From NCBI GenBank assembly GCA_905178155.1, contig CAJINV010000006.1, forward strand, positions 316,398 through 380,397: a stretch of 64,000 bases of DNA, read 5' to 3'. The position numbers were made by a program, and so were the translations under genes. The notes below the pieces were generated by a model. That model saw nothing but the letters and a program-made list of their open reading frames with translations, was not told the origin of the DNA and did not search any database. This stretch comes from Amoebophrya sp. A120. Taxonomy: Eukaryota; Protista; Dinoflagellata. Numbering within the stretch: the stretch's first letter is position 1; each line of letters begins with the position of its first letter. Positions 11,323 through 63,452 of the stretch are shown piece by piece.

Positions 11323-14300
11323 TCACCCCTCCGTCCAGTCCTCCGAAACTACACAAGATGAACTCTGGCAGGATTCGGGCGTCAAAACATCTGAAAAGGC
11401 TTCCATTTATCAAATGCAAAAATGTCTGGGTCCGGAAGATTCTGAGATTTGTCCTGCATGTTTTGCATGACCCAGGATGTCTGTAATGCACGCCCTAGCA
11501 TCACAGATTTTTAGAGGGCTTCCTGATGCCTCTTCCGCATGACAAACGCCCTCCCCGCGTAGCACACACTAGACTCCCCTTGCTTGTCATGCAATACAGA
11601 TTTTTTTAGAGTCCAAAGTTAGCATCACAAGTTCCAATCTTCCAGACCCAGACATTTTTGCATTTCATACCATTTCCGCGTTCAATGCCTCCTCTTCCCG
11701 CATTTCCTCGTCAATCAATCGGTCCTCCTCGTCCGGGGCAAGAAAAGTTTCGGCTAAATTGCGACCGGACGTGCCCGGAGGGACAAAAATCACAGTGGTG
11801 GAAGAAGTGGTCGCAGTAGTGGTGATGGTGTTTTCACCGTTCTCTTGATTACTATTTTCGAATTGGTCGGTCTTGTCAACATTCTTGTTGTCGTTATTTT
11901 TCGGAGGCTCTTCTTGGTCCTGCTCCTGAACACGCTGCATGGTGTGCTTTTGGAAAATGTCAATCGATTTTCGGATATGAATCGCAAAAGCATCGCACCC
12001 TAGGTAGTACAAATCGCATGACAAATTTTTCAGCATGAAAATATGAAATTTGTAATGCGGACCTAGCTTGAGATAGAGATTTGTAATGCGTGAGTGCGAT
12101 GAAAATTTTGCAGTGCATATCGGATCCGTTTGGCCGATGGGCCGCGGGTTTCTTGTTCCTCTTCCTGCTGTAGTTTTTCCTGGTTAAAAATATTCTTTGT
12201 TAATACGCAGTGGCTCCTTTCGCGGTCGATTTCGTGGTCAACGCTTGTGCGATTCCGCAGCGAAGAAATAATAACGGGTCGTGATGCTGCTGTCGGAGCG
12301 GCAACAATTTCCGCTGCCGGTTGGACCACGTCCAGGGCGGCGGAAGAGGTACTAGTCAAGGATGTACTGCTAGTCGTGCTGGTCAGAGACAGGGTGCTAC
12401 TAACTTGTTGTGTTTGTGGTTGTAGTTCAGTATCGGAAGTAGAAACGACTTCCTGCTGGACAACTTCTGGTAAAGGGCTAAGAGTTGCATTGCTGGATGT
12501 TGCTCCGGTTGTAGTTGTATTCGTGGAGCAAGTAGATGTAGAACAAATCGAACTTTCGGATTCATTTTCTGCTGCAGAGATGGAAACAGTTGCAGTGGAA
12601 GACAAAGTGCTAGTTGTATTGGCCGCCGATAAAGACGATGATGCAGCCGCTGAACTACTTGGTGAAGGTAATGCAGCCGCTGTAGACGATGAAGGTAATG
12701 CTAATGCAGCCGCGGCTGGTACTGAAGATGACGTTGACATCAACGACGTCGATCTGGAAGAAGAACTGGCAGAAGTAGCGGTCGCCCGGTTCCGCTTGTT
12801 GGCGGGAAAATTGGAAGTTAAAATCAAGTTGTTACACGGGACAGAGATGGTCAAATTATCAGAGGTATGCATTGCAAAAGTATCGTAGTAGTATAAATTG
12901 CAATACAAATTTCCTTAGCATGAGAAATGGAATTTATCATGCGGATTTGCCATAGCAAAAAGATTTGTAATGCAAAACTTGCATTCATACGAGTACGATA
13001 CTTTTGCACAGGATAAGAGGTAGTACTCGATGTAGAAGTTGATGAGCTGATGTTGATATTACAACTGCTGGTGTTAGTTGTAGTAGTACCGGTCGTCGAA
13101 GTTGTACTACTAGAAGAAGATGAAACAGGTCCTTGCGGAACAGATCCAGATCCCGACGAGTTTGTTAAAAGCGAAGAGTTGATGTCATTATTTCTCAATT
13201 CTTGAATCGTCTGCACGGTGTCCGCATTACACATTTTTTTCCCCGTATGAAAGTGCACAAAATAACCCTCCTGCCCCCGTTCATTTGTCATTTGAGGTGC
13301 ACAGCTGTTTGTAGCTGCTGTTGGATTTTTGCCTTCTAATGCTACAACCACCCCAGGCGCCTTGCGTCACGAGCTCCTATAGCGCACCGAGCACAACCAC
13401 ACACATTAGTTGTACGAGAGCCAGTTTGTCGAGGCCGTGTGGTTCTTTATGCATTAAATAAAACCGGGGTAACAAGACGATAGTGCGCAGGATCAATCCC
13501 ATAGGCAGTCTGACACAACACCCAGTGACTGTATGCCGACATTGCCTCTTCCTGAGAGACGTTGCGCCTATGACGTTGCACAACCCGCCTCCCTCTAGTG
13601 TCTCGCTAGTCAGTTTGTCCCGTGCCACAATTGTAAGTGCAGTTAAACTTTATTTCGCATGAAGATCTAGTTCAGAAGTTGCAAAAATGCAACTGAAAAA
13701 GATCATGAAACGGGAGGAGTTTTTGTGCACTCTCATAGCGGCCGCGTGCCACTATTACAATGAAAAATGCCCCACCCCCAGCTTGGCAGCATTTGTATTG
13801 CAAACCTTTCCAACAGAAACATGCCCCGTCTTGCATATCTCAGCATCACAGATTTTCCATGCTGAATAGGTCAAATTTGTGTTGCGAAGTAGCCCAACAG
13901 CAGGCGGATCAGTTATGCACAAGGCACCGCGCGCACCCAGATTCTGCATCAGAAACGCTCGCAATCCTTTTATGCAAGACAAAAAGCTTTCATTTGGAAA
14001 CTTTGCATGACAAACTTCTGCAAATTCCGGGGGGGCATTTTTCACTGTAATAGCCACCTCGATTATTTTCCTTTCGCGGCGGAACGGGAGCGGCGTCGGT
14101 GGCCGTGCGTACGCAGATGCGTCACCCATACCCGTTCCTACCGGCAAGGTTATCCAAGAAAAAAACATTGTAGGTGTAACTTTCTTGGAGGATTAGCATG
14201 ACAAATATCTCTCGCATGAAAGCAAAAACCTGTCATGCGCAGATAGTACGGGAAAACGCCGTTGAATGGGCCCTACGATGCATGCCAAGCATGACAGACG

Positions 14301-26009: not shown

Positions 26010-26321
26010 GGTTTGGGTTTTCTGGGTTGAATTTTTCCGGTAGTTTTATTTTGTCGCAATTCTATGTTTGACTCTGATGTCTCTTTTACTTTCTACAAAT
26101 AAGGAACAAAACCCGATGAAACATGTGAAATAAAGTTTGTATTCGACCGTTACCAGTCGTGGCACGCAAGAACAGATCGACGCAACATGGGTAATTATCA
26201 TTATGCGAGCGTGCCGGCACGCTGATGATTTATATTTAATAATTTGTAGTATGTATGTTTTTTTTCATCAGGAAATAAGCCGTCCGTGATTTCTTTCACA
26301 TAGGCCCAGAAACTGCTGGAC

Positions 26322-42800: not shown

Positions 42801-45800
42801 TTTGTACATAGCGTTTCCAACAAAATCAAAAAGATGAAAAACTACCGCTTGGGTCGTTCTTTGGAATAGATGTGATTACGGGAGGACATGACGATCGTTT
42901 GCGAGGGGATGTTCGAGCGTTATTTTTTCTAGTACTCGAAATGCATAAAGAAACCGAAAACAGTCTGGTGGTCCTGCATTGAAGAATGAGTCACTCCAAA
43001 AAATATTTTCTTCGCAAATTTGCCAAACAAGAAGCATGTCATGATTACAGTGACAGCACAAGTATATAGCAAATATCCAAATCCTGCTCCAACTGTTGTA
43101 TTGTTTCGTAGAACCATAAAGTATAGTACGTCCTTACCGACGCCCTGTTGTTTTTCCTCCTGACACAGTGCACGAAAAATTCCTCGTAACTCGCGCTTTT
43201 GCTGAGTGGAAACGGGTAACTCCAAAGCGTGCCGCTTGTTGTCGTCGCAAACAACGTGGTTCCCCCGTATGTCGTATCCTGTGCAAAAGCATCGCACTCG
43301 CATTGCAATCATGCATTACAAATCTTTTTCTTGAGGCAAGTCAGCACTACAAATGTTCTTTCTCATGCTGAGGAAATATATTTGTCATGCATTTCTACGA
43401 GTACGATACTTTTGCAATTCATATTTCGCCGCCGCGTTGGGTAAGGAGTCCAAATATCAAATGCAAATATGTCTGGGTCTGGAAGAATGCAACTTGTGAT
43501 GCTGCGTTTGGATGTCTAGAAAATTTGTGTTGCATGACCAGCAAAAGGAATCTAATTTTTGCTACGCGGAGAGGGCATTTGTCCTCATGCGGAACAGGCA
43601 TCAAGAATCCCTTCAAAAAATTGTGATGCCAGGGCATGCATTACAGACATCATCGCTCACGCAAACCATGCATGACAAGTCTCAGAATCTTCCAGACCCA
43701 GACACTTTTGCATTTGATACCAAATCCCGACTTGCCATCAACCAGGCCGAGTCTCGCTGTTCGTCACGGGACAGAGCGAGTAATTTCCTATCAAACGTGA
43801 CAGAGCAAATCGACTCTTTCGCGGCGTCGGGTAATTCCAACTTGCAGGCTAGCTCCACGTTCGCGAGTAGTTCGGGATTCGTGGCGGACTCGGAATTCGC
43901 TATTGGCGTCAAATACAGGTCGTACAACCTACCACAGTATCGACATTGCAAAAGTGCATCAGGCATGACTAGTCTCCCTCTCGAGCTGAACGTGAACTCG
44001 CATTAGCATTACAAATTCCATGATTTTGATCTTGATTTGTCATGCTACGAAAAATTTCTCATGTAGTTGCGCTTGACATACTTACGGTGCTTGATGTTCT
44101 CTTGCAATGCGTACGTACGTTTTCCCCAGCGATTCCTTCGTATTCAGCGTTTTGAAAGATAGCGCCACGACCCACCGTATCAAATGCAAAAATGTCTGGG
44201 TCTGGGAAAATTCAGACTTGTCATGCATATTTCGCATGCCCCATGACGTCAGGAATGCAGGACCTAGCATGACAGGTCCTGCGAAGTCTCTATCATGCCA
44301 ATCCTGCATGAGAAACTCCCGCTCATGTTGGTCAAAAAAGGACAACTTTTGGTGATCACGCAACACAGATTTTTGTGTGACCCACGGGACGCATCACAAG
44401 TTCCATCCTCCCAGACGTCCAGGGATTTTTGCATTTGATACATCGCCTCCGGTTCGTCGTCACGTCCCCGTCGAAGGCGATGGTCGCGTGGAAATTTTTA
44501 TCCTGTGCAAAAGTATTAATTGCGTTTATGCATTACAAATCTTTTTGCTAAAAAGGCAAATCCGCAGTACAAATTCAATCTGTAAAAATGCTAGGTCAAT
44601 TTGTAATGCAACAATTACACTAGTACGATACTTTTGCAGTTCATAATTTTCGTACAGGGAAAGTAACTGCGACCGTGCGCCCATGGATTTCTTGTCCTCT
44701 TCTATCCTGTGCAAAAGTATCGTGGTCGTAGTAATTGCATTTCTGCATTACAAATCTCTTTTTCAAGGTAAATCAGCATTACAAATCAAATTTGTAATGC
44801 TGGCCTAATTTGTCATGCAATTTATACTAGTACGATGCTTTTGCATTGCATATCTTCCGTTAGCAAACAATTTATCAACTGCAAATATCCCTGGATGCCT
44901 GGAAGATAATTGGGAGACTTGTCATGCAGGTTTTCCATGAGGACCCAGGAGGTCTGACGTGCAGGACATAGCATGACAGATTCTGATGTAAGATCTTTCT
45001 CATGCCTAGCCCGCATGAGGAACTTTTGCTCGCAAATTGATGGTCAACAAAAGTGGACATCAACTTTTGGTAATCACGCAACACAGATTTTTTCACAGTC
45101 CAGACTTCGCATGACAAGTTGCATCCTTCCAGACCCAGATGATATATTTGCAGTTGATACAATTCCCGTCGGTACAGTCTTTGTGCGGTTCGAGGTAATA
45201 CTCGGCGATTTTGTGGTAGTTTGACATGTCCCACACGTAGAACGACCCGTCGATGCCGACCGTCGCCATGGTAAGCGCCTGAAAGTCGAAACTCACGTCC
45301 GCGATGGGGGAGGTGTGCTTCTTGATGGTAACCTGGAAAAGTTTTTATGATGATCTTCATTTGGCAGCTACTTCTATTGAGTTTTTTGCATGACAGCGCA
45401 ACGTTATTATCTAGCTTCCCGCATCACAAGTTTTTACTTTTATTGTTCCACTTGTTCTCTATCAAAACCATATGCATATTTTTTTATACCAGTTTGTTCA
45501 GGTTCAGCGTCTCCAGCACGGTTAAGAACTTCCCATAAATCACCACCAAATAGTTCCCATTGGTCGGACTGTACACCACTTTTTTCAAATTTGCAAACCG
45601 GAGTTCTGCGTACTGCTGAATTTTGTTGGCGAGCAAGTATGGAGAGGAAAAAGTTTGTCACAGTCACGAACTTGCAGGTTTGGCATTACAAATTTTTTTT
45701 AGCATCGCAGCTTTTCCGTGTATTGCAGAAGCACTAGGGGAATCCCTTGAGAAGTTTTGGTGCTGTGATGCATTTTTACGCGTAGCAGGAAGCTTTGTAT

Positions 45801-48800
45801 TGCAAAGATGCGCAAGAGTGATCGTGACGAACTTTTTTTGTTTGATAGCAAGTGGAACATGCGCAAGGTTCCGTCCGCGAAGGCTACCGCGCAGCTGTAG
45901 CCGTCCGGGTGGATCGCGCATTGGATCGGCGCTTTTTCGCTGGTGAAAAACGTGCTCATATTGAGAGGAAAAATCCCCCCTCCCCATATCGAAACGTTAT
46001 AATCTTTCCGAAAATTTGTCTTGCTGATTTGAGACCACAAATCGCGTCTGTCTTGCAAGAAGACATTCATCCACAGGCTCTGCCGCATTATGCAGGCGGT
46101 TTGTGATGCTGTTGGGCCTACAGCATAGACGTTTCTCATCGACTAAGCGCCTAGGCGAAAAGCTTTCTACTCAGGCTTAGCAGGAGCCTGCTGGTGTCCT
46201 CTACTGCAAGACAAACCTGATTCGTATAGTACGCAAATCCAGCATCAGAAACTTGCTTTTGATATGGGGAGCGGGTATTTTTCCTTGTGATAGCTCAGTT
46301 CCAATTCCAGCGTCTCGTAGTTGTACAGCCTCAAAGAGTATCAAATGCAAATATGTCTGAATCTGGAAACTTGTAAATGCAAATCAGCGAACACTAAGCA
46401 CTCTGTAATGCACCGCCAAGCATGACAGGTTTTTTCGTCGCGCTGTGTAGTTGCGTATTCCGCATGACAGGCACAGGGAGCTGCTTGTGGCCACGCAACA
46501 CAGAGTCCAGAGTCATGCCAGACAAGCATGACAACTCTCGCAGTCTTCCAGGCCCAGACATATTTGCATTTGATAAAGAGCTGTCGTCCTTCGAACCGGC
46601 GCACGTTAAGAACAGTATGACAGTGCACAACTCGTCCCCCTCCCCCTCATTTGTTTAGCATGAACGGCAATACAGGCATCAGCAAGAATGCCGGTTCAGC
46701 ATGACAAATTCAAGTACACTGGAGTGTAGTACTATTTTGGGCTTCCAGAGCTTGTCATGCATGAGAGTGACAGGAGGGACACCAGTCTAGAGTTGGCGTT
46801 TTGCATGGGAAATGAGAACGAGGGAGTAGAGTTATGCACTCTGATAAACAGCGGTCGCAGTTCCGAATTCGCAGAGGACACAGACAACACCGGTCCAAAG
46901 TGCGCGGCGAGGGATATGGCGAAGTTCTCAGACGGGTTACATTCCCAACACTTACATGAATTTGTCATGCAGAATCACAATCACGCTTCTCACGATAAAG
47001 CTTCTTCGCATGACAAGTTTTCGACAAGCTAAACAGCATTACAACAGTCTGTGCCAAATCTGTAATGCAAGACGTGCAAGGGCAAGGCCCCCCCTTTTAC
47101 TTTTGCGTGTAGTTTTTGCATCACAAATTCATCATGTAACAGTTGAGAATGTAACGTTTGAGAACGCCATAAGGGATCGGTTGGCCGGGAAGGTGAGTTT
47201 CTCCTTCGCCAGATACAATTCCGCTAGATTCACGTAGCAAAAATCCCCATCCGCAAAGGCTTATGCATTGCAAAAGCATTGTAATCGCAGTAATTGCAAG
47301 CAGGCATGACAAATGTTGAACTTGAGCTGAATTTGCATATACAAATTGATGCTTTCATGCTAAGCAAATTGAAATTTGAAACTGCAAATTTTTATACCAT
47401 TTACTACTCGTACGACCACACTTTTGCGATGTATAAGGCCAACACCACTCCGGCCTGGCTGTTTGTGCCGGAGGTGTTTGAAGACGACTGCTATGAGAGT
47501 GCACAAGAACTCCCCCTCCCCCTCATTTGGATGGCAACATCCGTAGCAACACAAACGCTAGCAAAGATGCAGCTTTTGCATCACAAATTTGCGACCGATT
47601 GTTCTAGTGGTGACTCGGCTCCTTTCGGAACCTGTCATGCATAGTAGTGCCAAGAGGCAAAAGGTGGATTCGGTGTTTTGCACGACAAATGCGTTGGAGG
47701 AAGAGCTCCTGTGCACGACTCTCATAACTGCTGTTGGCTTTGCACAATGCCGGCGTTGGCAGTGTCGATGCCGTGCTGCTGCAAAATCTCCTTTCCGAAA
47801 AACAGTTCGTCGTCAACGGCAATGTCGATGGAAACCACGTTCGACTTCCTATGCATTGCAAATATGTCTGGGTCTGGAAAGTTCAAGTTGCAACTGGTGA
47901 TGCTGGATTTGGATTCCACAAGAAATCTGTATTGCCTGAACAGCAAAAGAGGTTCAGTTTTTGCCATGACGACAGGGCATTTCTGATGCGGTGTGGGCAT
48001 CAGGAAGCCCTCATAAAATCTGTGCTGCTAGGGCATGCATCACAGACATCAGAAGTCATGCAAAATGCGCATGACAAACCTTGCATCCTTCCAGACATCC
48101 AAGGATATTTGCAATGGATACTTCCTGCCGGTGTACAAGTTCCGGACGAACCGGTAGCTGTGCGAGTCCAGCCGCTCCCATATCAAAATGAAAAATCTCC
48201 CCTCCCCATGTTTCCGAAGATTTGTGTTGCTGATTTGAGGCCACAAATCACATGCGTTTTGCAAGACGACAAGGGCAGAAGCTTCGGCCCCATTATGGAA
48301 CCGATTTGTCATGCTGTCGGGCTTAAAGGGGAGCCGGTTGCCATGCTGAACAACTAGACCCATACGCCCCTGCCTAGCCTGGGGATCTGGCCTCGATGCC
48401 TTCCTGCAATACAAAGCTGATTTGTGTACACAAATCCAGCATCAGAAATTTCGTTTTGATATGGGGAGGGGGGATTTTTCCTTGCAATATCCCAAATCCC
48501 CAAGTACCCATCGCTCCCCGCAATGATAAACCCCTTCTGGAAGGTGCAGATCGCCAATGGTTTCACCTCTTCGGAGATCGTATCGTCAAAACAATCCTGC
48601 AGAACCTCTACGATTTTCAGTGTCTGAGAATCCACCAGGTAAATCTCCTGCTTCTGGCTGTTGACCGCCAGAATTTCCTTCTGCTTCGCCCACAACTTCT
48701 GCAGCAGCTGCAGACGCGGTTTTTCCTTGGAATTTATCGAAAGGAAAAATCCTCCCTCCCCATATTGAACCGGAAACCTGCTCTGTTGCTGGATTTGTGT

Positions 48801-51800
48801 ACACAAATCAGGTTTGTCTTGCTGGAGAGGACTGCAGACACATTTCAAGTCTGAGCCGAGAGGTATTGGCCTAGGCGCTTAGCGTGACAGACGTCTACGC
48901 TGTAGGAGCAAGAGCATGACAAACCGCCGGCAGAAAGCGGCGGAGCCTGTGGGGTTGCCTTCATGCAACACAGAGACCATTTGTGGTCACAAATCAGCAA
49001 CACAAATTTGCGAAAACGTACGTTGTCAATATGGGGAGGGGGATTTTTCCTTTTGATAGAGTTATTCGGAGCAGCGGGCTCCGTGTCGGAGGTGGTGTTA
49101 TTGTTGCCTCCAGAGGCGTATCAACTGTAAAAATGTCTGGGTCTGGAAATTTGTGATGCTGTGTGGCATATCATGAGGAGGCCACAATTGCTGGCTCGGC
49201 ATGACAAGTTTCTGAGCTTCTAGGTGTTGCCTATTCTGCATGACAAACTACGTTTCTGCATGACAGAAAAGTGGGGCTCTTTGGTAATGTGCATGACAGA
49301 CTTAAGAGTCATGCCAGACAAGCATGACAAACTTGCATTTTTCCAGACCCAGACATTTTTACATTTGATAAGGCGTTTTTCGCGGGCATCGGTATAGGGC
49401 TCTCAAACGTTATATTCTCGAACTGTTGCTGCATGGATTTGTGATGCAAGAATGGCAGAAGGGAACAAATACAAAGGTCGGATCTTGCAACTTTTACATT
49501 ACAACTTCGGCACAGATTTTTGATGTCCCCATGCTGGTAATACCCTTTTTGAAATTTGTCATGCGAAGTAGATTGGCCGTGTGGATGTTGATGTTCATTT
49601 TGCAAGACAAATTCATGTAGCAGTTGAGAAGGTAAAACCGATTTGTGAACGCCATAATCGGCCCGGTCCATGTGTAGGTGGAGAAGATGGTGGTTTCCGG
49701 ATTGATTTTGTCTCCCTCGAAGTCAGGAAACGGCCGGAGGTCGCGGGACGTGGTGTTGTACCTGTGATGGCGAGAGTAGCTAGTTTGTCATGCAGAAACC
49801 AGAAAAAGAGATTCATTTTGTCATGCAGAACCCTGGAAAAAAAACACATTTTGTTATGCAGAAACCAGAAAAAGAAATCCATTTACATTTTTTCATGCCG
49901 AACACCGGATAATAAAAAATTTCTCAAAAATAAGTAGTACTTGTAAAGCTTCAAGTAGCCCCCATTCCCGGACAGCAGCAACAAGTTCGAATCGTAGGGC
50001 GCGAACGCATCAAGTGCAAATATCGATGTGGGTGCTCTGGAAAGTTGCATGCAATTTGTCATGGTGGTCCTTGCATGCCAGACGCTTGTTCCTTTGTACA
50101 ACCCGCAGAACAGCATGACATCACGTGCTCCTCGGCAACTTACAAGAAGTTCTAGTGTGTTTACTGCATGACAAACTGAGTTATTTTTTCACAGCATGTG
50201 CATGACAAAAAAACGGGCCATGATCGTATCTATGCATCACACATCCTTGCTGTCCTTCCAATTTCGCATCACAAATCCAGACCCAGATCGATATTTGCCG
50301 TTGATAGAACGTGACTTTCTGCAACTCCAACGGCAAGGTTTGCTCGCACAGCACCGTCAACGAGTAATTCACCGTGTTCAACTATCCCACGAAAAAAGTG
50401 TTACAACAGTTACACACCCGTAGTGAATTGAGCAACACAAATTTCTCTGCATGACAGAGAAAACTTGTAATGCAGAAATCCTACTGGAAAACACCTATGA
50501 AACGAGGCTCCACCTATGCATATCCGGCATGACAGAGCTTGTCTGTCTTGCTTGGCCTGCAACACTACAATGTGTAACTGTAACACTTTTCTCTTGTTGC
50601 GATATCAACTCACAAAGCTGCAGAATCGTCCCCGTTCGCGCACTGAAAAACGTCGTGGGGTCTTCATACTGTGGGGTCAAAAGCGCTTATAACAGTGCAC
50701 AGCTCCCCCTCATTTGTACTCTAGCATGAACGGCAATACAAGCATCAGCAAGAATCAGAATGCCGGTTTTGCATGACAAAAAATTTGCACTGGATTGTAA
50801 TTCTATTCGGGCAGCTACCAGAACTTGTCATGCACAATAGTGACAGGAGGGAAAGCGTGGTTTTGGTGTTTTGCATGAGAAATGAGAACGAGGAGGAGTT
50901 CTTTTGCACGGCCATAGCGCTACCCGGGTGTGGTTGGCGTCGATGGCACAGCTCGTGTAGCCGCTTCTTTTCACATTCAACCCGAGGTTGTCGGTTGTGG
51001 TTCCCTGGAAACTGTTGTTACTCGTCAAGTTGTAAATCGTCACTTGGCCGCCGTTGGAGTTCGCGCTGGTACTTGAGCTGCTGCTGGTGCTTGTCGTGGT
51101 TTCGCAGGAGACGATGAAAGTTTTATCTAACGAAACCGCAAAACTGGTGATCGCCTCCACGCTCGTGCTCGCCGTGTATTACAGTGAAAAATGCCCCCCA
51201 CCGCTAAAAGTAAAATTGCAAAAAATTGTGATGCAAAGCTTCCAAATGAAAACTTTTTGTCATGCATGAAAGGAGTATGAATCTTTCTGATGCAGAGTGG
51301 AGGCGTGTATCGCATCGCTTGCATGACAAGCGCCGCTTTTGCTGGCGTATTTTGCAATACAAATTTTTGCTATTCACGATTGGAAACCTGTGATGCTGAT
51401 AGATGCAAGAGGGCGAAGGTTTCATTTGGAAAGGTTTGCAACACAAATGCTTCCAAGTTCGGGGGTGGGGGCATTTTTCATTGTAATACCGTGGTCGCTT
51501 GCTTCAGGAAGTAGCTGTCCGTTATCAAATGTAAAAATGTCTGGGTCAGGGGGATTTCTAGATTTGTCATGCATATTTTCCATGACCCATGATGTCTGTC
51601 ATGCATGCCTTAGCATCACAGATTTTTAGAGCGCTTTGTGATGCCTCTACAGCATGAGAAACGACCTCTCCGCGTCGCACAAACTGGAGTCCTCTTGCTG
51701 GTCATGCAATACAAATTTTTTCAGTATCCAGAGACAGCATCACAAGTTTAGAATGTTCCAGACCCAGACATTTTTACATTTGATATCCGTGTTGGTATAG

Positions 51801-51943
51801 ACATTCCGGATACACAAGTACCTCCCCACGGGGAAAATGATGTGCGCCGAGTCCAGAAACTTCACGTGCTCCTGGGACAGCAGCGCCTGGGAGTGGGACT
51901 GGGAGCCCCAGGCGTGGATGATGGAAAAGTTGTTCGACGCCAT
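33891..51943 (-). CDS. CFAP57: Cilia- and flagella-associated protein 57 (WDR65)-like; WD40 repeats plus C-terminal coiled coil; about 44 introners plus several GT-AG introns
   Basis: Reconstructed peptides match my recollection of CFAP57 in order: FLDSAHIIFPVGRYLCI, VEAITSFAVSLDKTFIVSCE, HFGPVLSVS..TCAG..LRLYNYETLELE, IQCAIHPDGYSCAVAFADGTLRMFHLL, KHTSPIADVSFDFQALTMATVGIDGSFYVWD, LFATTTSGTLWSYPFPL, MLIEEINALRRSQK. Ends GFPLMISMQNK-TAA at 33891. A few canonical-intron boundaries (~37200, ~40600-40700, ~42800-43170) unresolved. Confidence 0.88.
33969..34246. mobile_element. Introner family A
   Basis: DR TTCGC; removal gives frame to the stop. Confidence 0.9.
34319..34463. mobile_element. Introner family B
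   Basis: DR TCCCA. Confidence 0.9.
34541..34798. mobile_element. Introner family A
   Basis: DR TGGCT. Confidence 0.9.
34863..35032 (-). other. Canonical GT-AG intron
   Basis: AAG|GTACTT...TATCAG|ATA gives YADK|IKQMEMELK. Confidence 0.8.
35091..35240. mobile_element. Introner family B
   Basis: DR GCATG. Confidence 0.9.
35365..35644. mobile_element. Introner family F (left end GAT)
   Basis: DR TCCTC. Confidence 0.85.
35724..35885. mobile_element. Introner family B
   Basis: DR TTTCT. Confidence 0.9.
36085..36415. mobile_element. Introner family A with internal insertion
   Basis: DR CCCGT; extra segment starting with (AGATC)n at ~36163-36250. Confidence 0.85.
36494..36748. mobile_element. 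Introner family A
   Basis: DR GTGCT. Confidence 0.9.
36857..37076. mobile_element. Introner family E
   Basis: DR AACTC. Confidence 0.9.
37516..38766 (-). other. Long GT-AG intron with triplicated acceptor, octamer arrays and truncated A element (38255)
   Basis: AG|GTATAG...CATCAAG|G gives MEKERQR|FALLQKEHEE. Confidence 0.7.
38065..38205. repeat. About 22-bp tandem repeat ATGATCTGTCATGCAAATTTAA
   Basis: 5-6 copies built on the introner octamer TGTCATGC. Confidence 0.85.
38852..39185. mobile_element. Introner family F
   Basis: DR GGACT; frame restored. Confidence 0.85.
39286..39495. mobile_element. Introner family E
   Basis: DR GCTCT. Confidence 0.9.
39546..39815. mobile_element. Introner family D
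   Basis: DR CCTGG/CCTTG (4/5). Confidence 0.85.
39882..40154. mobile_element. Introner family A
   Basis: DR TTGCT. Confidence 0.9.
40219..40446. mobile_element. Introner family D
   Basis: TATGAGAGTGCACA...TGTGCACTTTCATA; DR 3/5. Confidence 0.85.
40778..41047. mobile_element. Introner family A
   Basis: DR ACTCG; empty site at 52999-53003. Confidence 0.92.
41096..41355. mobile_element. Introner family H
   Basis: DR CTCTG; empty site at 53275-53279. Confidence 0.92.
41485..41772. mobile_element. Introner family F
   Basis: DR TCGGC; same insertion site in paralogue at 53665. Confidence 0.9.
41821..41976. mobile_element. Introner family B (left end TCT)
   Basis: DR AGTTT/GGTTT (4/5). Confidence 0.85.
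42040..42326. mobile_element. Introner family F
   Basis: TIR clear; DR GCTTG/TCTTT (3/5). Confidence 0.8.
42447..42733. mobile_element. Introner family F
   Basis: DR CCAAG/CTAAG (4/5). Confidence 0.85.
43275..43423. mobile_element. Introner family B
   Basis: DR TGTCG/TTTCG (4/5); frame restored. Confidence 0.9.
43455..43719. mobile_element. Introner family A
   Basis: DR CCAAA; frame restored. Confidence 0.9.
43929..44085 (-). other. Hybrid intron: canonical GTAAGT...TAG around a decayed B-type introner (43938-44080)
   Basis: Removal gives REHQAP|LYDLYLTP and skips an in-frame TAA. Confidence 0.75.
44178..44440. mobile_element. Introner family A
   Basis: DR CACCG/CATCG (4/5); frame restored. 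Confidence 0.9.
44499..44645. mobile_element. Introner family B
   Basis: DR ATTTT; frame restored. Confidence 0.9.
44703..44852. mobile_element. Introner family B
   Basis: DR TCTTC; frame restored. Confidence 0.9.
44873..45159. mobile_element. Introner family A
   Basis: DR CAATT; frame restored. Confidence 0.9.
45333..45489 (-). other. Canonical GT-AG intron containing introner octamers
   Basis: CTG|GTATAA...TTTTCCAG|GTT gives NLNKL|VTIKKHTSP. Confidence 0.85.
45638..45847. mobile_element. Introner family E-like
   Basis: DR GCAAG. Confidence 0.85.
45959..46292. mobile_element. Introner family C
   Basis: DR GCTCA. Confidence 0.9.
46339..46575. mobile_element. Introner family A
   Basis: DR AAGAG. 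Confidence 0.9.
46616..46846. mobile_element. Introner family D
   Basis: DR AACAG. Confidence 0.9.
46915..47171. mobile_element. Introner family H
   Basis: DR AGGGA. Confidence 0.9.
47262..47435. mobile_element. Introner family B (diverged)
   Basis: DR AGGCT/AGGCC (4/5). Confidence 0.8.
47492..47726. mobile_element. Introner family D
   Basis: DR ACTGC. Confidence 0.9.
47850..48120. mobile_element. Introner family A
   Basis: DR CTTCC. Confidence 0.9.
48181..48489. mobile_element. Introner family C
   Basis: DR TCCCA. Confidence 0.9.
48735..49058. mobile_element. Introner family C
   Basis: DR GAATT/GAGTT (4/5); opposite orientation to 48181 copy. Confidence 0.88.
49119..49370. mobile_element. 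Introner family A
   Basis: DR AGGCG. Confidence 0.9.
49393..49656. mobile_element. Introner family H
   Basis: DR ATCGG. Confidence 0.88.
49762..49940 (-). other. Canonical GT-AG intron made of tandem octamer-containing repeats
   Basis: AA|GTACTA...CATCACAG|G gives YLKLYK|YNTTSRDL; internal repeats TTTTGTCATGCAGAAACCAGAAAAA. Confidence 0.8.
50008..50306. mobile_element. Introner family A (diverged, left end CAT)
   Basis: DR GAACG. Confidence 0.8.
50383..50604. mobile_element. Introner family E
   Basis: DR TCAAC; very similar to 39286-39495. Confidence 0.9.
50688..50916. mobile_element. Introner family D
   Basis: DR GCGCT. Confidence 0.9.
51177..51488. mobile_element. Introner family G
   Basis: DR CCGTG; frame restored; reverse orientation of 13753 copy. 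Confidence 0.9.
51523..51785. mobile_element. Introner family A
   Basis: DR TCCGT; frame restored. Confidence 0.9.
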
Positions 51944-51960
51944 TGTCGTTAGTAGAAGCG

Positions 51961-52069: not shown

Positions 52070-53024
52070 AAGCAAGTAGTGGTGACGAGATTTCTTCTAC
52101 CCCGTGGTATTCAGCGTCGTCGAACAACAGATTCCTTCGCGGAGAGTGGTGAAGCTTTTCACTGTGTGAATGTAGTCGTTTTTGAGGCAGTAGTCGGCGA
52201 CGAGCTGTCTTCACGCATCGTTTTGACTTGCTCTATAACATTCTTTCCCGCGCACTGACTCTACTCACGACAGCCGCACAGCTACCCATTTTTTCACGAC
52301 TGCTGTTCCCGTATAGTTCTATAAAGAAGTTTTCATTTTGGTGAACAAGTCGAGATAGGAAAAATAACGAAATTCTGGTTGTAAACAAATTACGAAATTC
52401 TGGTTGTAACAAAGGTGCGTGAATAAAATGTATTTTTCCAGCAGTGCGATACAAGTTATTTTGAGTTCGTTCCTTTTTCCGGGGGGAAGCGAAAGTGGAG
52501 CAGAAACTCTGAAAAAAAGTCAGTACAATGAAGTTGTGTTTCTTTTATTAGCCATAGCCCGCTTGTTAATACACTTACTATCATTTCATAACATTTTGCT
52601 TGTTAAGTAGCTGCCTCCTCCGACCGCTATTATTTGTTTTGCATGCTGATCATGAGCGTTTTGTCAATGACGAATGAGGAGAAGGGGGGGTTGTGGACCA
52701 CTCTGATACCTTGTCCGCATTTTCGGTTCTCAAGTCCTTCTCGGTGCTGCGCCTCTAACGCTTTCACCATGCGGACGGGTTCCTGGAGAAGTTTTATTTC
52801 GTGTATTTTTTTTGTTGCGAATGCGATTTCACGCAACATGCATTGTCATTGTCATGCGCAACATCAATCTTTAACTTCATCTTTAACGTTCCCCAGAAAC
52901 AGCACCGTTGCCACCATATTCTATACCTGTTCCCTTTCCTGAATGATATCCTCCAATAGCACTATCCTTTCCTTCAATGCTTCCACTTCTGACTTCTCAC
53001 TCGTTATCTTCGTCGACTCTAGTC

Positions 53025-53252
53025 TATCCAAAGAAAAAGATTGTAGCTGTGACTTTCATCTTGCTGGAACAGCATGACAAATCCGTCTGGCATGGGACGA
53101 GCAACGACCTGTTATGCGCAGATAGTACGCGAAAAGGAAAACGCCACTGGCATTGAATGGGCGCTACTATGCATGCCCAGCATGACAGACGCACTCATCT
53201 TGCAGGTTGCGCATCACAAAGTTACAGGCTAACAATGTTTTTTTCTTCGATA
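53025..53252. mobile_element. Introner family J
   Basis: DR TAGTC; empty site (TAATC) at 41069. Confidence 0.92.
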
Positions 53253-53292
53253 TAGTCTCGCCTCGTACGCGTACCTCTGCTGGTCTAGTTTC

Positions 53293-53548
53293 TCTCAAAT
53301 GCAAAAGTGTCTGGGTCTAGAAACTTGTAATGCTCGGTTGGGCATAGTGAATGCTCTGTAATGCAGAGCCAAGCATGAGAAATATCTGCGCTGCTTAGTG
53401 TTGCGCTGTTCGCATGACAAAATGCGTGTTTGCAACGTGATAGGCAAAAGGCTCTCTTCTTGGTCACGCATCACAAACTCTTCAGTCATGCCAGACAAGC
53501 ATGACAAACCTTGTATTCTTCCAGACCCAGACATATTTGCAATCCATA
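53293..53548. mobile_element. Introner family A (left end TCT)
   Basis: DR GTTTC; empty site (GCTTC) at 41369. Confidence 0.9.
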
Positions 53549-53664
53549 GTTTCTGCATGCTGTCCAACTCGATTTGCTTAATCTCGTGGTTCAACTTCTC
53601 GACCTTATCTTCCAGTTTTACCAAGTCCTGTTTCTCAATCAAGCAAATCTCGTCCCCCTTCGGC

Positions 53665-53785
53665 TATCCTTTGCGAAAGCGTCCCCATCCCATAGTCAAG
53701 CTGCTGGTAAATCCGCAACACAAATCTCCAAGCTTTGGGGTGGGGACGTTTTGACTATGGGGTGGGGACGTTTTTACATATGATA
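53665..53785. mobile_element. Chimeric family F element
   Basis: Left flank TCGGC equals the 41480 site, right flank GCGTC equals the 45507 site. Confidence 0.8.
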
Positions 53786-53825
53786 GCGTCTCCAGGACGG
53801 TTAAGAACTTCCCATAAATCACCAC

Positions 53826-54094
53826 TATCAAATGCAAGTGTGTCTGGGTCTGGAACAAGGTTGGAACCTGTCATGCAGCCTTCACCTGACCCGTGACGTC
53901 TGTGATGTATTCCCTAGCATCACAGAAGATTTTCTGAGTGCTTCTTGATGCCTATAATTCTGCATGACAAATAACCTCCCCGCGTAGGACAAACTGCACT
54001 CCTCTTGCTGGTCATGCAATACACATTTTTTTAGAATCCAAAGTTAGCATCACAAGTTCCAACTTTCCAGACACAGACATGTTTGCACTTGATA
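53826..54094. mobile_element. Introner family A
   Basis: DR ACCAC; empty site at 45542. Confidence 0.92.
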
Positions 54095-54161
54095 ACCACC
54101 AAATAGCTCCCATTGGTCGGACTGTACACCACTTTTTTCAAATTTGCAAACCGGAGTTCTG

Positions 54162-54430
54162 TATGAACTGCCAAGGTATCGTACTCGTATAAATGCATTA
54201 CAAATCTTAATCTCCACAGCATGTAAAACAAATTTCTCTGCATGACAGAGAAAACTTGTAATGTAGCAGATTCTGACTATCCGCATACTTCGTCGCGTAT
54301 CCAGCCTCTTTCGATGCCGCGTTGCAGTTGTACATGTCTAACTCTCCGTAGTTCAAGTAGATGTGATATCCTGTGCAAAAGTACCGCACTCGTATTCCAG
54401 TCATGCATTACAAATCTTTTTCTTAAAAGC
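54162..54430. mobile_element. Two truncated family B left halves (54162, 54367)
   Basis: TATGAACTGCCAAGGTATCGTACTCGTA and TATCCTGTGCAAAAGTACCG without matching right TIRs. Confidence 0.65.
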
Positions 54431-55199: not shown

Positions 55200-56300
55200 C
55201 CTCCACCAACTGCACTTACAGGCGGCTGATCGGCTTGACAGCTGGATATCAAACTTCTCCCAGGCCTGCGGCAGGCTCTACTTCGCCACGGCGTTGGTCT
55301 GCACGGTGTGGCGGAGCATGCACGGCGGTCGAAGGTTTTGCAGCTGGCGACGACGAACGAAAGCGCCTCGCGCTGCCGCTTCGCCGCGGTCCGGCGGCAC
55401 TGCGTCACGCCGTAGAATATGAGTGGGCAGCTCGCTTTGGTGTCCTCGCGCGGGAGAAGACACTACGGGCGCCGGGGGGACGGAGGATCGAACGACGCAG
55501 GGTCCACCCATGTCTGACGCCGGTCAAGAAATCGCTGGCGCGGGGCCCAAGCCCGGGGCCAGAAAATTGCGGAAGAGCCCGCGGCGGGCGGGCCAAGCTA
55601 GCGATGGGCCCCATCGGCCTGGCGCGGCCGCCGGCCCTATCCGGCCCCGGCGCTGCGCCTCGCCCGCCGGGAATTGGGCCGGGCGGTGGCGCGGGGGGCG
55701 TGAGGCGCGCGCGGGCCGCAAGCTAGCTGGCAGCCAAGCGTGGCCGGCGGGCCGAGGCCAGCGAGCACCATCGGCCCGCCCCCCCGCGGTCCAATCAGGC
55801 CGCGGGCAGGGAGCGGGCGCAAAAGGCCGGCGGCCGCGCCGCGCGGGCACTGCCAAGGCCGCCCGGTCGGCGGCTTCTTCTCCGTCTTCATTGCCGAGGA
55901 CGCCGCCACGCCACGCGCGCGCGCCAAACCCTTCCGGACCTGCAAAGCCCCGGCGCCGCGTCTCCTGGCCCTTTGGCCTGTGGCTTGCACCTGGCTAAAC
56001 GTAGGCGCTGCGCCGTAAACTTGCAACCCAAACCCCTACGCCTTCAATCTGCTCCCCTAAACTCCCAATCCGCTCCCCTAAACTCTCAACCCTGGCCACT
56101 AAACTCGCAACCCTAGGCCCGAGAGTCTCAACCTGGGCCCCGAAACCCAGAACGTCGCTTGCCGCGTCGTCGCTCCGCACCTCTGGAGACCCTTCCAGCC
56201 CTGGCGCACCGCGCGGCGTCCGTCGCGCGTCCGAATAGTGGCGCCGCCGGCTGAGGAGAGGCCGGCGCCGCGGAGGCGCGGGGCGCCGAGCGCGGTCAAT
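55200..56300. other. GC-rich intergenic island
   Basis: Very high GC, no introners, ORFs uninformative. Confidence 0.6.
56034..56150. repeat. Degenerate 21-bp tandem repeat starting CCCTAAA
   Basis: CCCTAAACTCCCAATCCGCTC / CCCTAAACTCTCAACCCTGGC / CACTAAACTCGCAACCCTAGG / CCCGAGAGTCTCAACCTGGGC. Confidence 0.75.
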
Positions 56301-57085
56301 CTCTGCCGTCTGCTATGTTTGTGAGAAAACGGAATTGAAACGCATAAAACGCACCGAGCCACTCGAGCTGGGAAAATGAAAATGAAAAGAGGATCTTGCA
56401 TTCATTTTTCTCGCTTCGCAGCACTGCCACTGTCCTTTGCTCGCGTGATCTGTACTTTTTTAGTTGAGCAAAGACATGATCCTCGTTTCATCTGTTCTTT
56501 GGAACAAGTGCGGTTCTGTCCGAAAACATTGTGAGCGTCCGAACACGATGTTACAGGTTTATCAATGTATTCACTTCCTCCAGTTTTCATGCTGCAGCGC
56601 ATCCAAGACGGTGCGGCCATGCATCTAGCTTTATTTTTCGACAAAGAAACTAGTACTAGAACTAGTAGACAATCTTGCACACATCACATCCACACTAAAG
56701 CAGTCGAATTTATTTTTCCGACTCAGGTGGTCCAGGTGCATACCAGCCTCACTTTCCAATCACCGCCAAACGACAGAGGCTGGAAAAAAGAAAAAATCGT
56801 GCTGGGTCTTCGTGCAAGCATCAAGACTTGTTCCTTTTGCTCCATCCAATGATAATGAAGTTGAAGCCACAAGTTTAATATTATAACACTCCAGACCACA
56901 GGCACAGTTTGATGAGTTCGAAACAATCGTACAAAAATGATTTATTTCTTTCTGCTGCCGAGCGACGTACGAGTAGTTGTAAGTACGTTGTTGTCTTCCT
57001 TTTCGCCAATTATTTCGGAATTCCTCCTTCTAAAATCAGACTACTAGTACTCCCCTACAGAAGATGAAGATGATCACCATCCGAA

Positions 57086-60000: not shown

Positions 60001-63000
60001 TTTGGCGCGCGCGCGCGCGCGATTTTGGTTTGTGAGGCGCGAAGCGCTGCGCGACTATTGTTTACGGTGGGACGGCTGACGGTCGTAGGATTTAGGGGCG
60101 CTGCTTCCGATCAATGGGCGCACGAAGACCGAAGCTGTGCGCGCGGCGCTGGTTTCAAACAGAAAGCGGGCGAACGCAAGGGCCGATCGCAGTCATGGCT
60201 ACTGTTTTCTGTAATGACAGACTTGAGGCCTTTGGCGCCCATCACGGTGCGCGCAGCTGTGCTGCAGCACCATCTAAAACGACGACGCTGCGGCATTGCA
60301 GGTACAGAGCCGAACCGGGGGCCAGGTAATACCTGGCCCCCCGGATCGACTAAGTACCACTGAGATCAGGAGCGTACCTTTGGGTCAGGAACGCCCCCCC
60401 TACTCCTTCCTCCACCTGCATATTTTTTTGGCGCCGAGCATATCAAATGGCCTGTTTGTTCTAGGATATTTAGGCCCCGGGGCGGTATTGAACTGGTAGG
60501 TACATTGTTGAACCGCGGGCCCTGTTGAACTGATACACATGCATTTATACGAGTACTATCAAATGTAAAAATGTCTGGGTCTGGAAGAGTGCTAGACTTG
60601 TCATGCAGATTTTACATGACATATGACGTCTGTAATGCATCGCCTGGCATCACAGATTTTTAGCAAGCTTTCTGATGCCTATCCCGCATGAGAAATACCC
60701 TCTCCATGTAGCACAAACTGGACCCTTCTTGCTGGTCGTGCAATACAGATTTTTTTAGAATGCAGAGACAGCATGACAAGTTGCATTCTTCCAGACCCAG
60801 ACATTTTTACATTTGATAAGTACGATACTTTTGCAATGCATAACAAAAAACCGATCCAGCTGGTAGTCTTTAGAAACCGGCGGGTTGATATGAGAGTGCG
60901 CAACTCCCCCTCCCCCTCATTTAATTGGCACGCACAGCAACACAAGTGCTGACACAGATGCACGCTTTGCATTACAAATTCGCGATCGGTTCTAGTGCTG
61001 TTTCGGCTTCGGGAATCTGTCATGCAAGGAGCGCCACAGGGCAAAGGTTGGACTTGGCATTTTGCATGACAAATGAGGGGGAGGGGGAGTTGTGCACTCC
61101 CATAGTTGAGGCTTTCACCTTTCCGCGCCTTGGACTGGTAATGCGGATGAAGGTCGAGGTCAAGGCCGTCGAGGACTCCTGCTATGTTTCTTTCTTTATC
61201 TGGAACTGCTATATCGGAATACGCGAATCTCTGATTGCCGTCCACTTTTCGCACGTCGAGGCCGTGGCGTTTGGATGATGAGAAAGATGATCCTACTATC
61301 CTGTCAAACGTCCGCCCGCCCGCCTCGAACAAGCTCGCCGGGGAAAACTGGTAGCCGGTACCCGGCCCGCTTCGGTAAGTTGCCGCCTTGTGGTAATTAT
61401 GCATTGCAAATATGTCTGGGTCCGGAAGGATACAACCTGTGATGCTGTCTTTGGATTCTAAAAAAGTTTGTCTTGCATGATCAGGAAGACGGTTCCAGTT
61501 TTTGCTACGCGGAGATGGAATTTCTCATGCGGGATAGGCATCAAAAAGGCCACAGATTAAATCTGTGATGCTAGAGCATAGATCACAGGTGTCATGGATT
61601 TATACAAAATGTGCATGACAAACTCAGGCTCTTCCAGACCCAGACATATTTGCAGTTGATAGTAATATCCTCCACTGGTTGAAGGGGATTTGGGTAGAGT
61701 ACCCGTCTTGGCCGGAGTCCACTTGTGAGTGCCGTGGGAAAGCGGCTTGAAACCCGGGCGAAAGACAGTGGAGGAGCTGATTTTGGATTTCGGGTTTACT
61801 TATCATGCGAGGGTTTACTAGGGTTGAGGGTTTAATATGCGAGGCCAATTTCAAAAATTTTCAGACAAAGAGAGAATCGTTCAACAGTGCCACGAAGGTC
61901 GCTTCTTTGCAATAGATATGTTCCTTACCCGTGGCTCGCGTGTCCTCGTTTCGCAACCTCTTCCCGGTGCTGCGCGATTTCCCCCATGATACTTTCTGCG
62001 TAGTGCTTCTCAATCGGCGACTTATATTCTGCCAACTCCTGCGTGCTGTTTACCCTTTTCAAAAACCGCAGGTCCGCGTCGTTCCTACTGCATTTCTCGA
62101 AAAAATCGTCGTACTGCTTCACCAGATATGCGGTTTTGAAATGTGCGGCGTACATTTTGCCACTCACCGGGAACTCGGTCGGCTTTTTTCGGATGAAGTG
62201 CATAATCTTCTGGTCTAAAAACACGTCCGGGTCGGAAGGGAGTTGTAACAGGTCTTGTTCGGTATCGGTGCGGAAATTTCTAGTACCTTTGGACAACATC
62301 ATGTTGGAACTACTCCTCTTTCTCGTCGGAAGGAGCAAATGCGGGATTCTCCTTGCTGGGTCAAATTCGTAGTTCCGGGAAAAGTTGTCGTATTTTGCGT
62401 TGCCCGAGGACGCGGCGCGGCTCGTCCGGGTGGCGGGTGAAATTGATCCACCCGCTCGGTCGTCTAATATTAACGGGAAGACTCTGCCCCGTGCGAGGGT
62501 CAAGTTTCGACTTTGGGTACTACTAACAGGTGCTTTTTTCCTCGTGGAGCCTGTGTGACTGCTCTTCCTATCGTCAATTGCACGACCACGAGTTGTTGTA
62601 CTACTACCTGGAAGCTATGGAAGTGTCAGGATTGAAATCGACAAAGTTGAAATAATCTGTCATGCATAAAATGCAAGGCACGAAGCGAGTGTCTTGCAGA
62701 GATTGCAAATGAGGCGGATTGTGAGCCTATTTCGGGTTTGGGATAGAGCTGCGAACGTAGCATGACAAAGGACGCCTTCTTTCGCTAACCAGCATGACAA
62801 ACTGGATTTAGACGGTATCGAAATTTGTCATGCGCGGCCTAGAAATTGGGCTTCCAACTGGTATCCATTTCATGCATCACAAATCGTTTCAACTTTGTTG
62901 ATTTCAAACCTGACGCTTCCATAGAAGCTGCTGCCCGGGTAGTTCTTCAGTTAATATTCCGGAGGTGAGCGCAACCTCTTCGACCAGCTGCGCCGTCTGC

Positions 63001-63452
63001 GCCATCCGTTCCGCGACCGTGAGAGCAGGTCGTGGCGGCCTCGTCGTCCCGAAAGGAGCTCCTGCTCCGAGCGCGGAAGAACTAGAGGACGTTGGTTCTG
63101 TAGTTTTTTGTCCTGGTGCTCTTGCGTCGGAGTGGTGGTTATGAACTGCAAATATGTAGTCTGGGTCTGGAAGATTCTTACATTTGTCCTGCATGTCTGA
63201 CATGACTCGAGAATCTGTGATGCATAGAGGCATCGGAAAAGCCTCGCCTATCTGTCATGGAAAAACGAAGTTTCTCATGCGGAATACGCAACACATAGCA
63301 GCTCAAAAATTTGTCATGCTGGGCTGCGTATTGCAGTCCGGCTATCATCCACTTCTCGCATCACAAGTTTCCAAACCCAGACATTTTTGCAGTTGATAGT
63401 GGTCGTAGGGGCTCCGCTCGAGCACTTGCTGGATGAAGGGAGAGGTGTCCAT
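57086..63452 (-). CDS. Hypothetical protein with 9 introners and probable GT-AG introns
   Basis: Starts MDTSPFIQQVLERSPYDH|HSDARA (junction 63140); GESLN|PPVSK (60889); SGFTD|LDLAS (59310); VLME|DNKIL (57275) to stop at 57086. Some internal junctions not traced. Confidence 0.65.
57275..57491. mobile_element. Introner family A, strongly diverged
   Basis: DR TCCTC; frame restored. Confidence 0.75.
57968..58289. mobile_element. Introner family C
   Basis: Clear TIR; DR GAGTC/CCGTC (3/5). Confidence 0.85.
59310..59579. mobile_element. Introner family A
   Basis: DR GTCGG; frame restored. Confidence 0.9.
59784..60537. mobile_element. 754-bp TG...CA element with 4-bp TSD (solo LTR or Ginger/TDD-like non-autonomous element)
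   Basis: Ends TGAATCGGTTC / GAACTGATACA (9/11 inverted match); CATG duplicated at 59780-59783 and 60538-60541. Confidence 0.75.
60557..60818. mobile_element. Introner family A nested in right TIR of a B element
   Basis: DR AGTAC. Confidence 0.92.
60889..61104. mobile_element. Introner family D
   Basis: DR GTTGA; empty site in duplicate at 59658-59662. Confidence 0.92.
61398..61661. mobile_element. Introner family A
   Basis: DR GTAAT. Confidence 0.9.
62616..62923. mobile_element. Introner family L (single copy here)
   Basis: About 37-bp TIR TATGGAAGTGTCAGGATTGAAATCGACAAAGTTGAAA; DR GAAGC. Confidence 0.9.
63140..63398. mobile_element. Introner family A
   Basis: DR GTGGT; frame restored. 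Confidence 0.9.

Follow-up and report, generated by a model that had tools for sequence, protein, structure and literature searches.

An internal octamer site shared by the introner elements of Amoebophrya sp. A120 and its helical phasing

Introduction

Why would mobile elements that differ in their ends and bodies carry the same eight-letter word? This question is raised by a 64,000-nt stretch of the Amoebophrya sp. A120 genome (contig CAJINV010000006.1, positions 316,398 to 380,397; the window hereafter), in which the octamer TGTVATGC (V being A, C or G) recurs inside families of elements with terminal inverted repeats (TIRs). The portions of Farhat et al. (PMC7789003) on which we draw report about 30,000 introners in A120, with U1 snRNA and transposase both undetected. 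A preliminary description of the window had proposed that the word is a common binding site, either for a host factor that marks sequence for removal or for a shared transposase, or that it is an orientation-proof RNA signal.

Results

The octamer is confined to introns

We found 266 exact copies of TGTVATGC in the window (117 on the + strand and 149 on the - strand), compared with 7.61 ± 2.73 expected from shuffled sequence; the largest shuffled count was 15, and 0 of 100 shuffles reached 266. The copies comprised 148 of TGTCATGC, 62 of TGTGATGC and 56 of TGTAATGC, and the fourth variant, TGTTATGC, occurred only 5 times. Most of them lie in one span:

11408..63398, both strands: 259 of the 266 exact octamers, core of a ~13-bp site

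The other seven are at 829-3161, in elements of the same kinds. When the window was divided into sequence classes, with borders drawn partly by hand, 235 octamers fell in TIR elements (20.0 kb), 7 in element fragments (0.7 kb) and 22 in GT-AG introns without TIRs (2.3 kb). RNA-supported exons (4.4 kb) held none, other genic DNA (19.7 kb) held 2 versus 1.2 expected, and intergenic DNA including the GC-rich islands (16.9 kb) held none versus 1.1 expected. At least one exact octamer was present in 79 of the 83 TIR elements and at least two in 70, the average element having 2.9 exact octamers and about 4.6 sites of the wider matrix described below. In addition, at least 1,502 exact octamers were found in 493 kb of a second (metagenome) assembly, where the same families are present. 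These results collectively demonstrate that the octamer is confined to introns, most of it in TIR elements. The recurrence in both orientations, several times per element, that had been noted from the letters is borne out, and so is the enrichment in elements over exons and intergenic DNA. The remark that the word is rare in exons and GC islands holds in that counts there are at background level; depletion below background is not demonstrated. A synonymous-shuffle test of exon avoidance gave 38 observed versus 14 expected on frames that crossed unremoved introns, and its result was not used.

The octamer-bearing families are the introners of A120

The octamer-bearing families are the published introner elements of Amoebophrya sp. 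A120. Each element starts with TAT, ends with ATA and is flanked by a 5-bp target duplication of near-random sequence. TAT opens 805 of 824 element ends, in part due to the search rule, and the inverted repeats fit TAT-N7-AAA, some families ending in TAT-N7-CAA or TAT-N7-AGG instead. Removal of each element together with 5 nt joins reading frames of up to 1776 codons, and for nine elements an empty paralogous site is present in the window. As in miniature inverted-repeat transposable elements (MITEs), TIRs, a target duplication of fixed length, empty sites and an absence of coding capacity are thus found together.

The second assembly was reached by scanning metagenome contigs with one TIR pattern, which gave at least 165 loci in a single assembly (493 kb when merged). 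Among the matches listed, its loci contain the window families, with identities reaching 95%; when its proteins were searched, the one named match was to Amoebophrya A25, at 55%. The loci were picked by the S0/S1 TIR word, which biases inner-TIR conservation upward and leaves the motif unbiased. From the window and the second-assembly matches listed, 588 candidate TIR pairs yielded 412 clean copies, grouped into 17 families of at least three copies. Examples from the window are as follows (the -1/+4 register is defined in the next section):

11408..11669: S0, ~262 bp, inner TIR ATGTCTGGGTCTGGAAG; 18 window copies, in both orientations
S0 consensus: sites at 42>, 74>, 90<, 129<, 183< and 215<
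49119..49370: S1, ~253 bp, TIR as in S0 with another body; spliced; five same-direction sites at spacings of 31, 33, 20 and 39
35091..35240: S2, ~150 bp, inner TIR AGTATCGTACTCGTA; RNA joint 35084>35240
39286..39495: S3, ~210 bp; other window copies at 14151, 20804, 36857, 50383 and 53025
42040..42326: S4, ~280 bp, sites exclusively on one strand; this copy and those at 41485-41772 and 42447-42733 are all spliced, the latter two lying the other way round
45959..46292: S5, ~320 bp, inner TIR ATCCCCCCTCCCCATATC; joint 45953>46293
39546..39815: S6-type element; joint 39540>39816; its duplication gives GT and AG at -1/+4 and a canonical-looking intron
62616..62923: S8, ~308 bp
2984, 13753, 17445, 19936 (nested in the TIR of 19927-20359), 40219 and 45638: further families

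Once the motif had been masked, consensuses matched only between families that share TIRs, apart from one 19-nt match. Without masking, remote alignments were obtained between S0 and S1 (68% over 243 nt), S10 and S6 (75% over 111 nt), and also S6 and S7. We count about 12 clans, which are probably related at a distance, with spacers that have diverged. The families had been described as otherwise unrelated; this holds only in part, since some align remotely and all have ends of the TAT-N7-AAA type.

Most families are inserted in both orientations relative to transcription. S3 is the only strongly biased family (12:2 and 16:2 in two counts) and S1 gives 17:7, most families being even. Neither introners nor octamers occur in 16.9 kb of intergenic DNA (4600-11320, 26050-33200, 54430-57080 and 63600-64000), and the elements appear to be restricted to coding sequence, which is unusual for MITEs.

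Elements are removed from RNA in a fixed register

Among the matches listed, eight joints in the raw RNA of run X8, each covered by 396-617 reads, leave out six elements and two GT-AG introns; the 2,996 joints beyond these are mostly repeat cross-mapping. In run X5, which is of genomic type, the unspliced form is present and there is no support for any of the 8 listed RNA joints. Contigs X1 and X2, classed as RNA by automatic guess, add at least 15 joints (15 of 30 listed). Since the joints occur in RNA reads and spliced contigs and none in X5, element removal is RNA splicing, not DNA excision. DNA elimination, as of the internally eliminated sequences of ciliates, was rejected because the joined form was found in RNA only and not in X5 (a single run, its life stage unrecorded). 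The suggestion that the octamer marks sequence for removal is thereby narrowed, by the eight RNA joints and their absence from X5, to removal from RNA by splicing, and removal from DNA is dropped.

All 18 single-element joints that were inspected skip the element plus 5 nt (45631 after a hand check of its ends). Where duplications are imperfect, they restrict the cut to one value: in RNA sense, the intron starts 1 nt before TAT and ends 4 nt after ATA. This -1/+4 register comes from five informative joints within window positions 41479-44172, seen in two contig sets of one study. It held even with a decayed duplication (43938-44113), and it fits 39546-39815, whose duplication puts G-T and A-G at those positions. 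Because the intron starts 1 nt before TAT, T invariably occupies its second position, which is also the case for GT donors; the last intron position shows a slight preference for G (72-74 of 196). A relaxed spliceosome would seem to be used for introner removal. A fixed ruler from octamer to splice site was also considered and rejected, as the distance and direction of the first site vary. The element at 13569-13737, decayed and S6-like with intact ends, has no matrix site, and its removal restores the frame by hand reading.

Micro-exons of ~15 nt between adjacent introners (44853-44872 and 49371-49392) are kept in spliced contigs. Nesting was observed for S16 within the TIR of an S1-type copy (19927-20359) and for S0 within an S2 remnant (60557-60818); the outer frame is restored, which implies ordered splicing. 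RNA reads of run X9 match element interiors only (35394-35447 and 36167-36254), with several differences, which suggests related elements in transcripts of another strain or locus.

The octamer is the core of a wider, conserved site

Iterating a matrix extended the octamer to a ~13-bp site, approximately RRYYT[G/C]TV[A/T]TGCW, with 366 sites in 78 elements. The core first described is real, and the true motif is wider and more degenerate. The fourth octamer position tolerates C, G or A and avoids T. Motif columns were 0.89-0.99 identical to the consensus, versus 0.68-0.90 for spacers, in 16 of 17 families, the sole family whose motif columns did not exceed its spacers being S14 (4 copies). Across 361 copies of nine families, private substitutions affected 219 of 8,864 core positions (2.5%, the core being the five invariant motif positions) and 1,727 of 25,851 spacer positions (6.7%), and all nine families agree. 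In the most diverged quartile of copies the values were 3.3% and 12.9%.

Mismatches between target duplications, used as a clock of time since insertion, amounted to 4.2% per site across the two copies, and, set against this, the 2.5% of the core does not stand clearly below neutral post-insertion decay. The excess of old over young copies was 0.012 for the core and 0.020 for spacers, a weak contrast on post-insertion selection. A core rate near this clock is expected if selection acts mainly at copying; redundant host selection would explain it too. The comparison of motif and flanks supports a constrained site, and simple shared ancestry decaying at the neutral rate is unsupported, though some families are likely to share a remote ancestor.

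In element spacers, change is no more frequent at CpG (6.5% versus 6.7%). The second assembly includes a gene with a C-5 cytosine DNA methylase domain (L023:581-2080).

Sites are paired three helical turns apart and phased to the element ends

In window copies, the distances between neighbouring sites of one direction peak at 31-33 bp (87 pairs). Among 90 same-direction spacings counted at the family level, 25 measure 30-33 bp, and 15 of 16 families contribute to them, whereas the best window in 5,000 random placements held 8.6 on average and 16 at most. The mean pair spacing is near 31.7 bp, which would correspond to 10.6 bp per turn, a value nearer that of B-DNA than that of A-RNA. Across families, the sequence separating the two sites of a pair has almost no information in common; the exception is a weak half-site, inverted, at +15 to +17.

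Counted from the element end, the distance to the first inward-pointing site is 32-33, 39-44 or 52-55 bp. After collapsing by clan, 13 end distances remain (32, 32, 32, 33, 33, 33, 40.5, 42, 43, 43, 43.5, 52.5 and 55), with a vector strength of 0.85 at period 10.5 that none of 20,000 uniform draws equalled; the 18 uncollapsed distances gave 0.74 (p=0.0001). Spacing and phase, which the preliminary description had left to be checked, thus show 30-33-bp pairs in 15 of 16 families and end distances that form a 10.5-bp ladder.

Motif orientation points to DNA

In RNA sense, the two motif strands are about equally frequent (491 versus 447), without the bias that a single-stranded RNA splicing element would show. 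Both orientations are present in 173 of 196 stranded copies, and 23 hold one orientation only. S4 copies, whose sites all lie on the same strand, are spliced whichever way they are inserted; this speaks against an RNA word and disfavours the orientation-proof RNA signal. Furthermore, terminal stems have no excess of G-U over A-C (83:71 and 190:187), and in 5 of 6 families the element arms show no covariation at end positions 4-8, end variants mixing freely. On the other side, folds between inverted copies of the motif are possible in most of the other families. An RBFOX-like UGCAUG word was rejected, since it is missing from two of the three octamer variants.

Introns without TIRs in a WD40 gene also carry the octamer

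A window exon is 100% identical to an A120 protein, all 1534 aa of which map colinearly to 33894-51943.

33894..51943, - strand: WD40 gene, 1534-aa beta-propeller protein (Amoebophrya sp. A120, P0003), 51 introns
37516..38766, - strand: 1251-nt GT-AG intron lacking paired TIRs; the exact octamer occurs 15 times, within local tandem repeats of 17, 22 and 36 bp; one S0 end fragment
49762..49940, - strand: 179-nt GT-AG intron without TIR; a 33-bp unit repeated in tandem 3.1 times, every copy with a site or variant
45333..45489, - strand: 157-nt GT-AG intron without TIR; a pair of exact octamers at 33-bp spacing; spacers without family homology
42792..43137, - strand: 346-nt GT-AG intron with a GTAAG donor; no octamer and no matrix site
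52250..54430, - strand: partial duplicate of the WD40 gene; each copy has filled element sites that are empty in the other, showing insertion with 5-bp duplication

An exact octamer is present in 49 of the 51 introns and in 0 exons of this gene: in all 44 TIR introners and in 5 of the 7 GT-AG introns without TIRs. The octamer, first placed inside element families, is indeed mostly there, but it is present too in introns that are no elements. Intron 34863-35032 has no exact octamer, and the 346-nt GTAAG intron shows that the motif is dispensable for ordinary splicing and no universal requirement. When four TIR-less introns were tested for spacer homology to the families, two had none beyond the motif and two were marginal. 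In the second assembly, 10 of 62 predicted non-TIR junctions held the exact octamer (chance 3%); these junctions come from automatic GT-AG prediction around motif pairs, which is unreliable on strand, and many may be no introns.

Besides 52250-54430, mosaic partial duplicates of neighbouring genes lie at 700-4600 and 59600-60900; in all three, introners are reciprocally present or absent and some elements are truncated. GC-rich islands occur at 26279-27800, 29300-30500, 5000-6900, 9000-10400 and 55300-56300; two of them are diverged copies of each other, and the islands gave 0 Rfam or Pfam matches. Intergenic tandem arrays are at 7675-7863 (21 bp), 8193-8501 (40 bp) and 10619-10710 (19 bp). 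Rfam returned 0 matches, as did PDB sequence searches of three exons and a homolog search of exon 45159-45330.

Discussion

Comparison with known systems

Target duplications of 5 bp are typical of integrase-type enzymes; CACTA ends go with 3-bp, hAT with 8-bp and Tc1/mariner with TA duplications. The TAT ends and the 5-bp duplication of the A120 elements do not match CACTA, hAT, Tc1/mariner or the IS607 family. As with subterminal repeats of the transposase type, the motif is repeated near the ends, conserved and phased to the end. In the parts of the literature considered here, short repeated protein-binding motifs lie inside the element ends of CACTA (bound by TnpA), hAT (Hermes) and IS607-family elements (PMC2613891, PMC6188088), IS1535 having helically phased 9-bp motifs 20-60 bp from its end (PMC6188088); in A120 the binding is predicted. 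As described there, those motifs are family-specific and vary within species, whereas the A120 motif is common to about 12 TIR clans, fills the whole element, recurs at three-turn spacing and occurs in host introns.

Intronic signals thought to act at the DNA level include the 10-bp-periodic PATCs of C. elegans and those of plant intron-mediated enhancement; unlike the A120 motif, they do not consist of discrete 13-bp sites inside mobile introns. Among alveolates, the portion of PMC4797266 considered describes an ApiAP2 site of apicomplexans, TGCATGCA, likewise a strongly over-represented non-coding octamer, sharing GCATG and bound on dsDNA; it is palindromic and upstream of genes, whereas the A120 motif is asymmetric, tolerates GCATCA, GCATTA and GCAACA, and is absent from intergenic DNA of the window. 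This resemblance, one of sequence, is a lead only.

The introners of Farhat et al. (PMC7789003) agree with ours in organism, inverted repeats of TAT, 7 variable nt and AAA, direct repeats, non-canonical splicing and genic insertion. The sections considered give no internal motif or phasing and describe splice sites as variable relative to a hairpin; here the duplication is 5 bp and the register a fixed -1/+4 in all joints examined. Likewise, the A120 families of Gozashti et al. 2025 (PMC12130899) are short TIR DNA families of 150-320 bp whose superfamily is unassigned there; its account of the A120 families, as far as considered, has no shared internal motif, and its family 38 has integrase-like frames between TIRs, a candidate helper. 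The strings TGTCATGC and GCATGACA had no occurrence in the Amoebophrya and introner papers text-searched, save a single GCATGACA in John 2019 (PMC6482013). The elements are already known; we found no account of the internal site common to them, of its helical grammar or of a fixed splice register in the literature searched (a scope outside which lie Farhat supplement figures S19-S25, Gozashti 2025 supplement files 13-14 and Roy et al. 2023).

What might the shared site do?

The octamer core is, we think with good confidence, a site for a dsDNA-binding protein, as strand symmetry, the degenerate fourth position, conservation, the 31-33-bp pairs and the 10.5-bp end ladder all suggest. The common binder proposed at the outset is to this extent supported; the choice between a host factor and a shared transposase is unsettled. 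For the further proposal that the predicted site serves mainly in the copying (transposition) of introners, with one binder for all families, we put the chances at about even. Binder protomers would sit on one helix face, first at 32-33, 39-44 or 52-55 bp inside the end and then at a further 31-33 bp, and would help to build a copying complex on the element ends of every family, together with an enzyme that recognises TAT-N7-AAA and cuts with a 5-bp stagger. If only copies with intact arrays found new families, the site would be kept while spacers and inner TIRs drift. The splice position would be set by the element ends, 1 nt before TAT and 4 nt after ATA, with the octamer not involved. Candidate binders include a transposase domain, an accessory protein like the CACTA TnpA and a co-opted host factor. 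The end phasing, which resembles that of IS1535 motifs and CACTA TnpA sites, favours a complex assembled on the ends.

Several observations weigh against a main role in copying. A Pfam scan of the 117 longest among 252 open frames gave housekeeping domains only, with 0 transposase domains; no long autonomous element was seen in 557 kb (<1% of the genome), where a single TIR pair exceeded 700 bp (834 bp); scans of viral contigs with two TIR patterns and a motif-array pattern gave 0 matches; and A120 is, in the parts of Farhat et al. considered (PMC7789003), reported to have no transposase. The motif is also retained in places where decay would be expected of a transposase site: in 5 of 7 TIR-less introns of the WD40 gene and, as itself or a variant, in every one of the six rows of tandem repeats that lie in such introns. 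Partners at 30-35 bp were seen for 28 of 110 anchors outside masked elements, versus 7.3, the anchors including some unmasked elements (window 50008-50306). In the geometry, the end distances hardly separate period 10.5 from 11 (0.74 versus 0.72), the remaining spacings are weakly phased (0.30 at 10.4, n=60), indel constraint between paired sites is slight (3.4 versus 4.8 per kb), 7 of 25 distinct first sites point outward, and the families are not fully independent, so that part of the phasing may be inherited.

These same introns lead to another explanation, possible in our judgement but rather doubtful: a host dsDNA-binding factor would use the spaced pair as a DNA-level intron mark, to recruit or license co-transcriptional splicing or to keep intron-rich genes active, in a lineage reported to be without U1 snRNA, and introners would have spread carrying their own mark. 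It would account for the WD40 gene having the octamer in 49 of its 51 introns and in no exon, for the two tested TIR-less introns with spacers of no family homology, for the 30-35-bp pairs outside elements, for the local tandem amplification of motif-bearing units and for the retention of the core in even the most diverged quartile (3.3% versus 12.9%), and U1 is undetected in A120 in the portions of PMC7789003 considered. However, just 10 of 62 predicted non-TIR junctions of the second assembly hold the octamer, introns 42792-43137 and 34863-35032 lack the exact word, element 13569-13737 restores its frame with no matrix site, and avoidance of the motif by exons is not demonstrated. Most motif-bearing TIR-less introns begin with GTAT, like an old element after G, one such intron (L040) is a decayed S2 (E 9e-14), and the 28 of 110 pair anchors include some unmasked elements; nor would a mere mark predict the end phasing. 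Copying and host-mark roles may coexist. It is unlikely, in our view, that a single dsDNA binder reads the three-turn pair both to mobilise all families and to mark introns for co-transcriptional excision at -1/+4, replacing a lost U1 step.

A role in RNA, as a protein-bound word or by pairing of forward with reverse copies so that the intron folds up and is excised, seems quite improbable. In 8 of 9 families, motif bases are predicted to be paired at 0.68-0.84 versus 0.56-0.65 for spacers, most bodies fold better than shuffled sequence, both orientations occur in 173 of 196 copies, and an RNA helix of 11 bp would be compatible with the tandem periods of 22 and 33 seen in ordinary introns; but pairing is a trivial outcome of inverted copies, and G-U/A-C asymmetry is absent. 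S4, spliced either way, has a motif-motif pairing of 0.07, a body z near 0 and a covariation term of 7.32 (positive being unfavourable; 5 copies). Least credible of all is a neutral relic, in which all families would descend from one ancestor of ~32-bp units and the motif would be functionless. Remote alignments between some families, the common end pattern and a post-insertion decay not clearly below neutral would agree with it. Its strict form is refuted by a motif far better conserved than the adjacent spacers; moreover, the fourth position varies among C, G and A and avoids T, spacers between pairs share almost no information across families, and the orientation and order of sites differ between them.

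Significance

For the movement of A120 introners, the shared phased site is a concrete bait for a protein that would serve all families; for their splicing, the -1/+4 register is a testable rule for splice-site choice and for re-annotation of A120 genes. A host intron mark, if true, would mean DNA-level intron definition by a sequence-specific factor, and the combined role, if true, would mean that the helical geometry of DNA defines introns and that the transposons themselves bring this definition with them.

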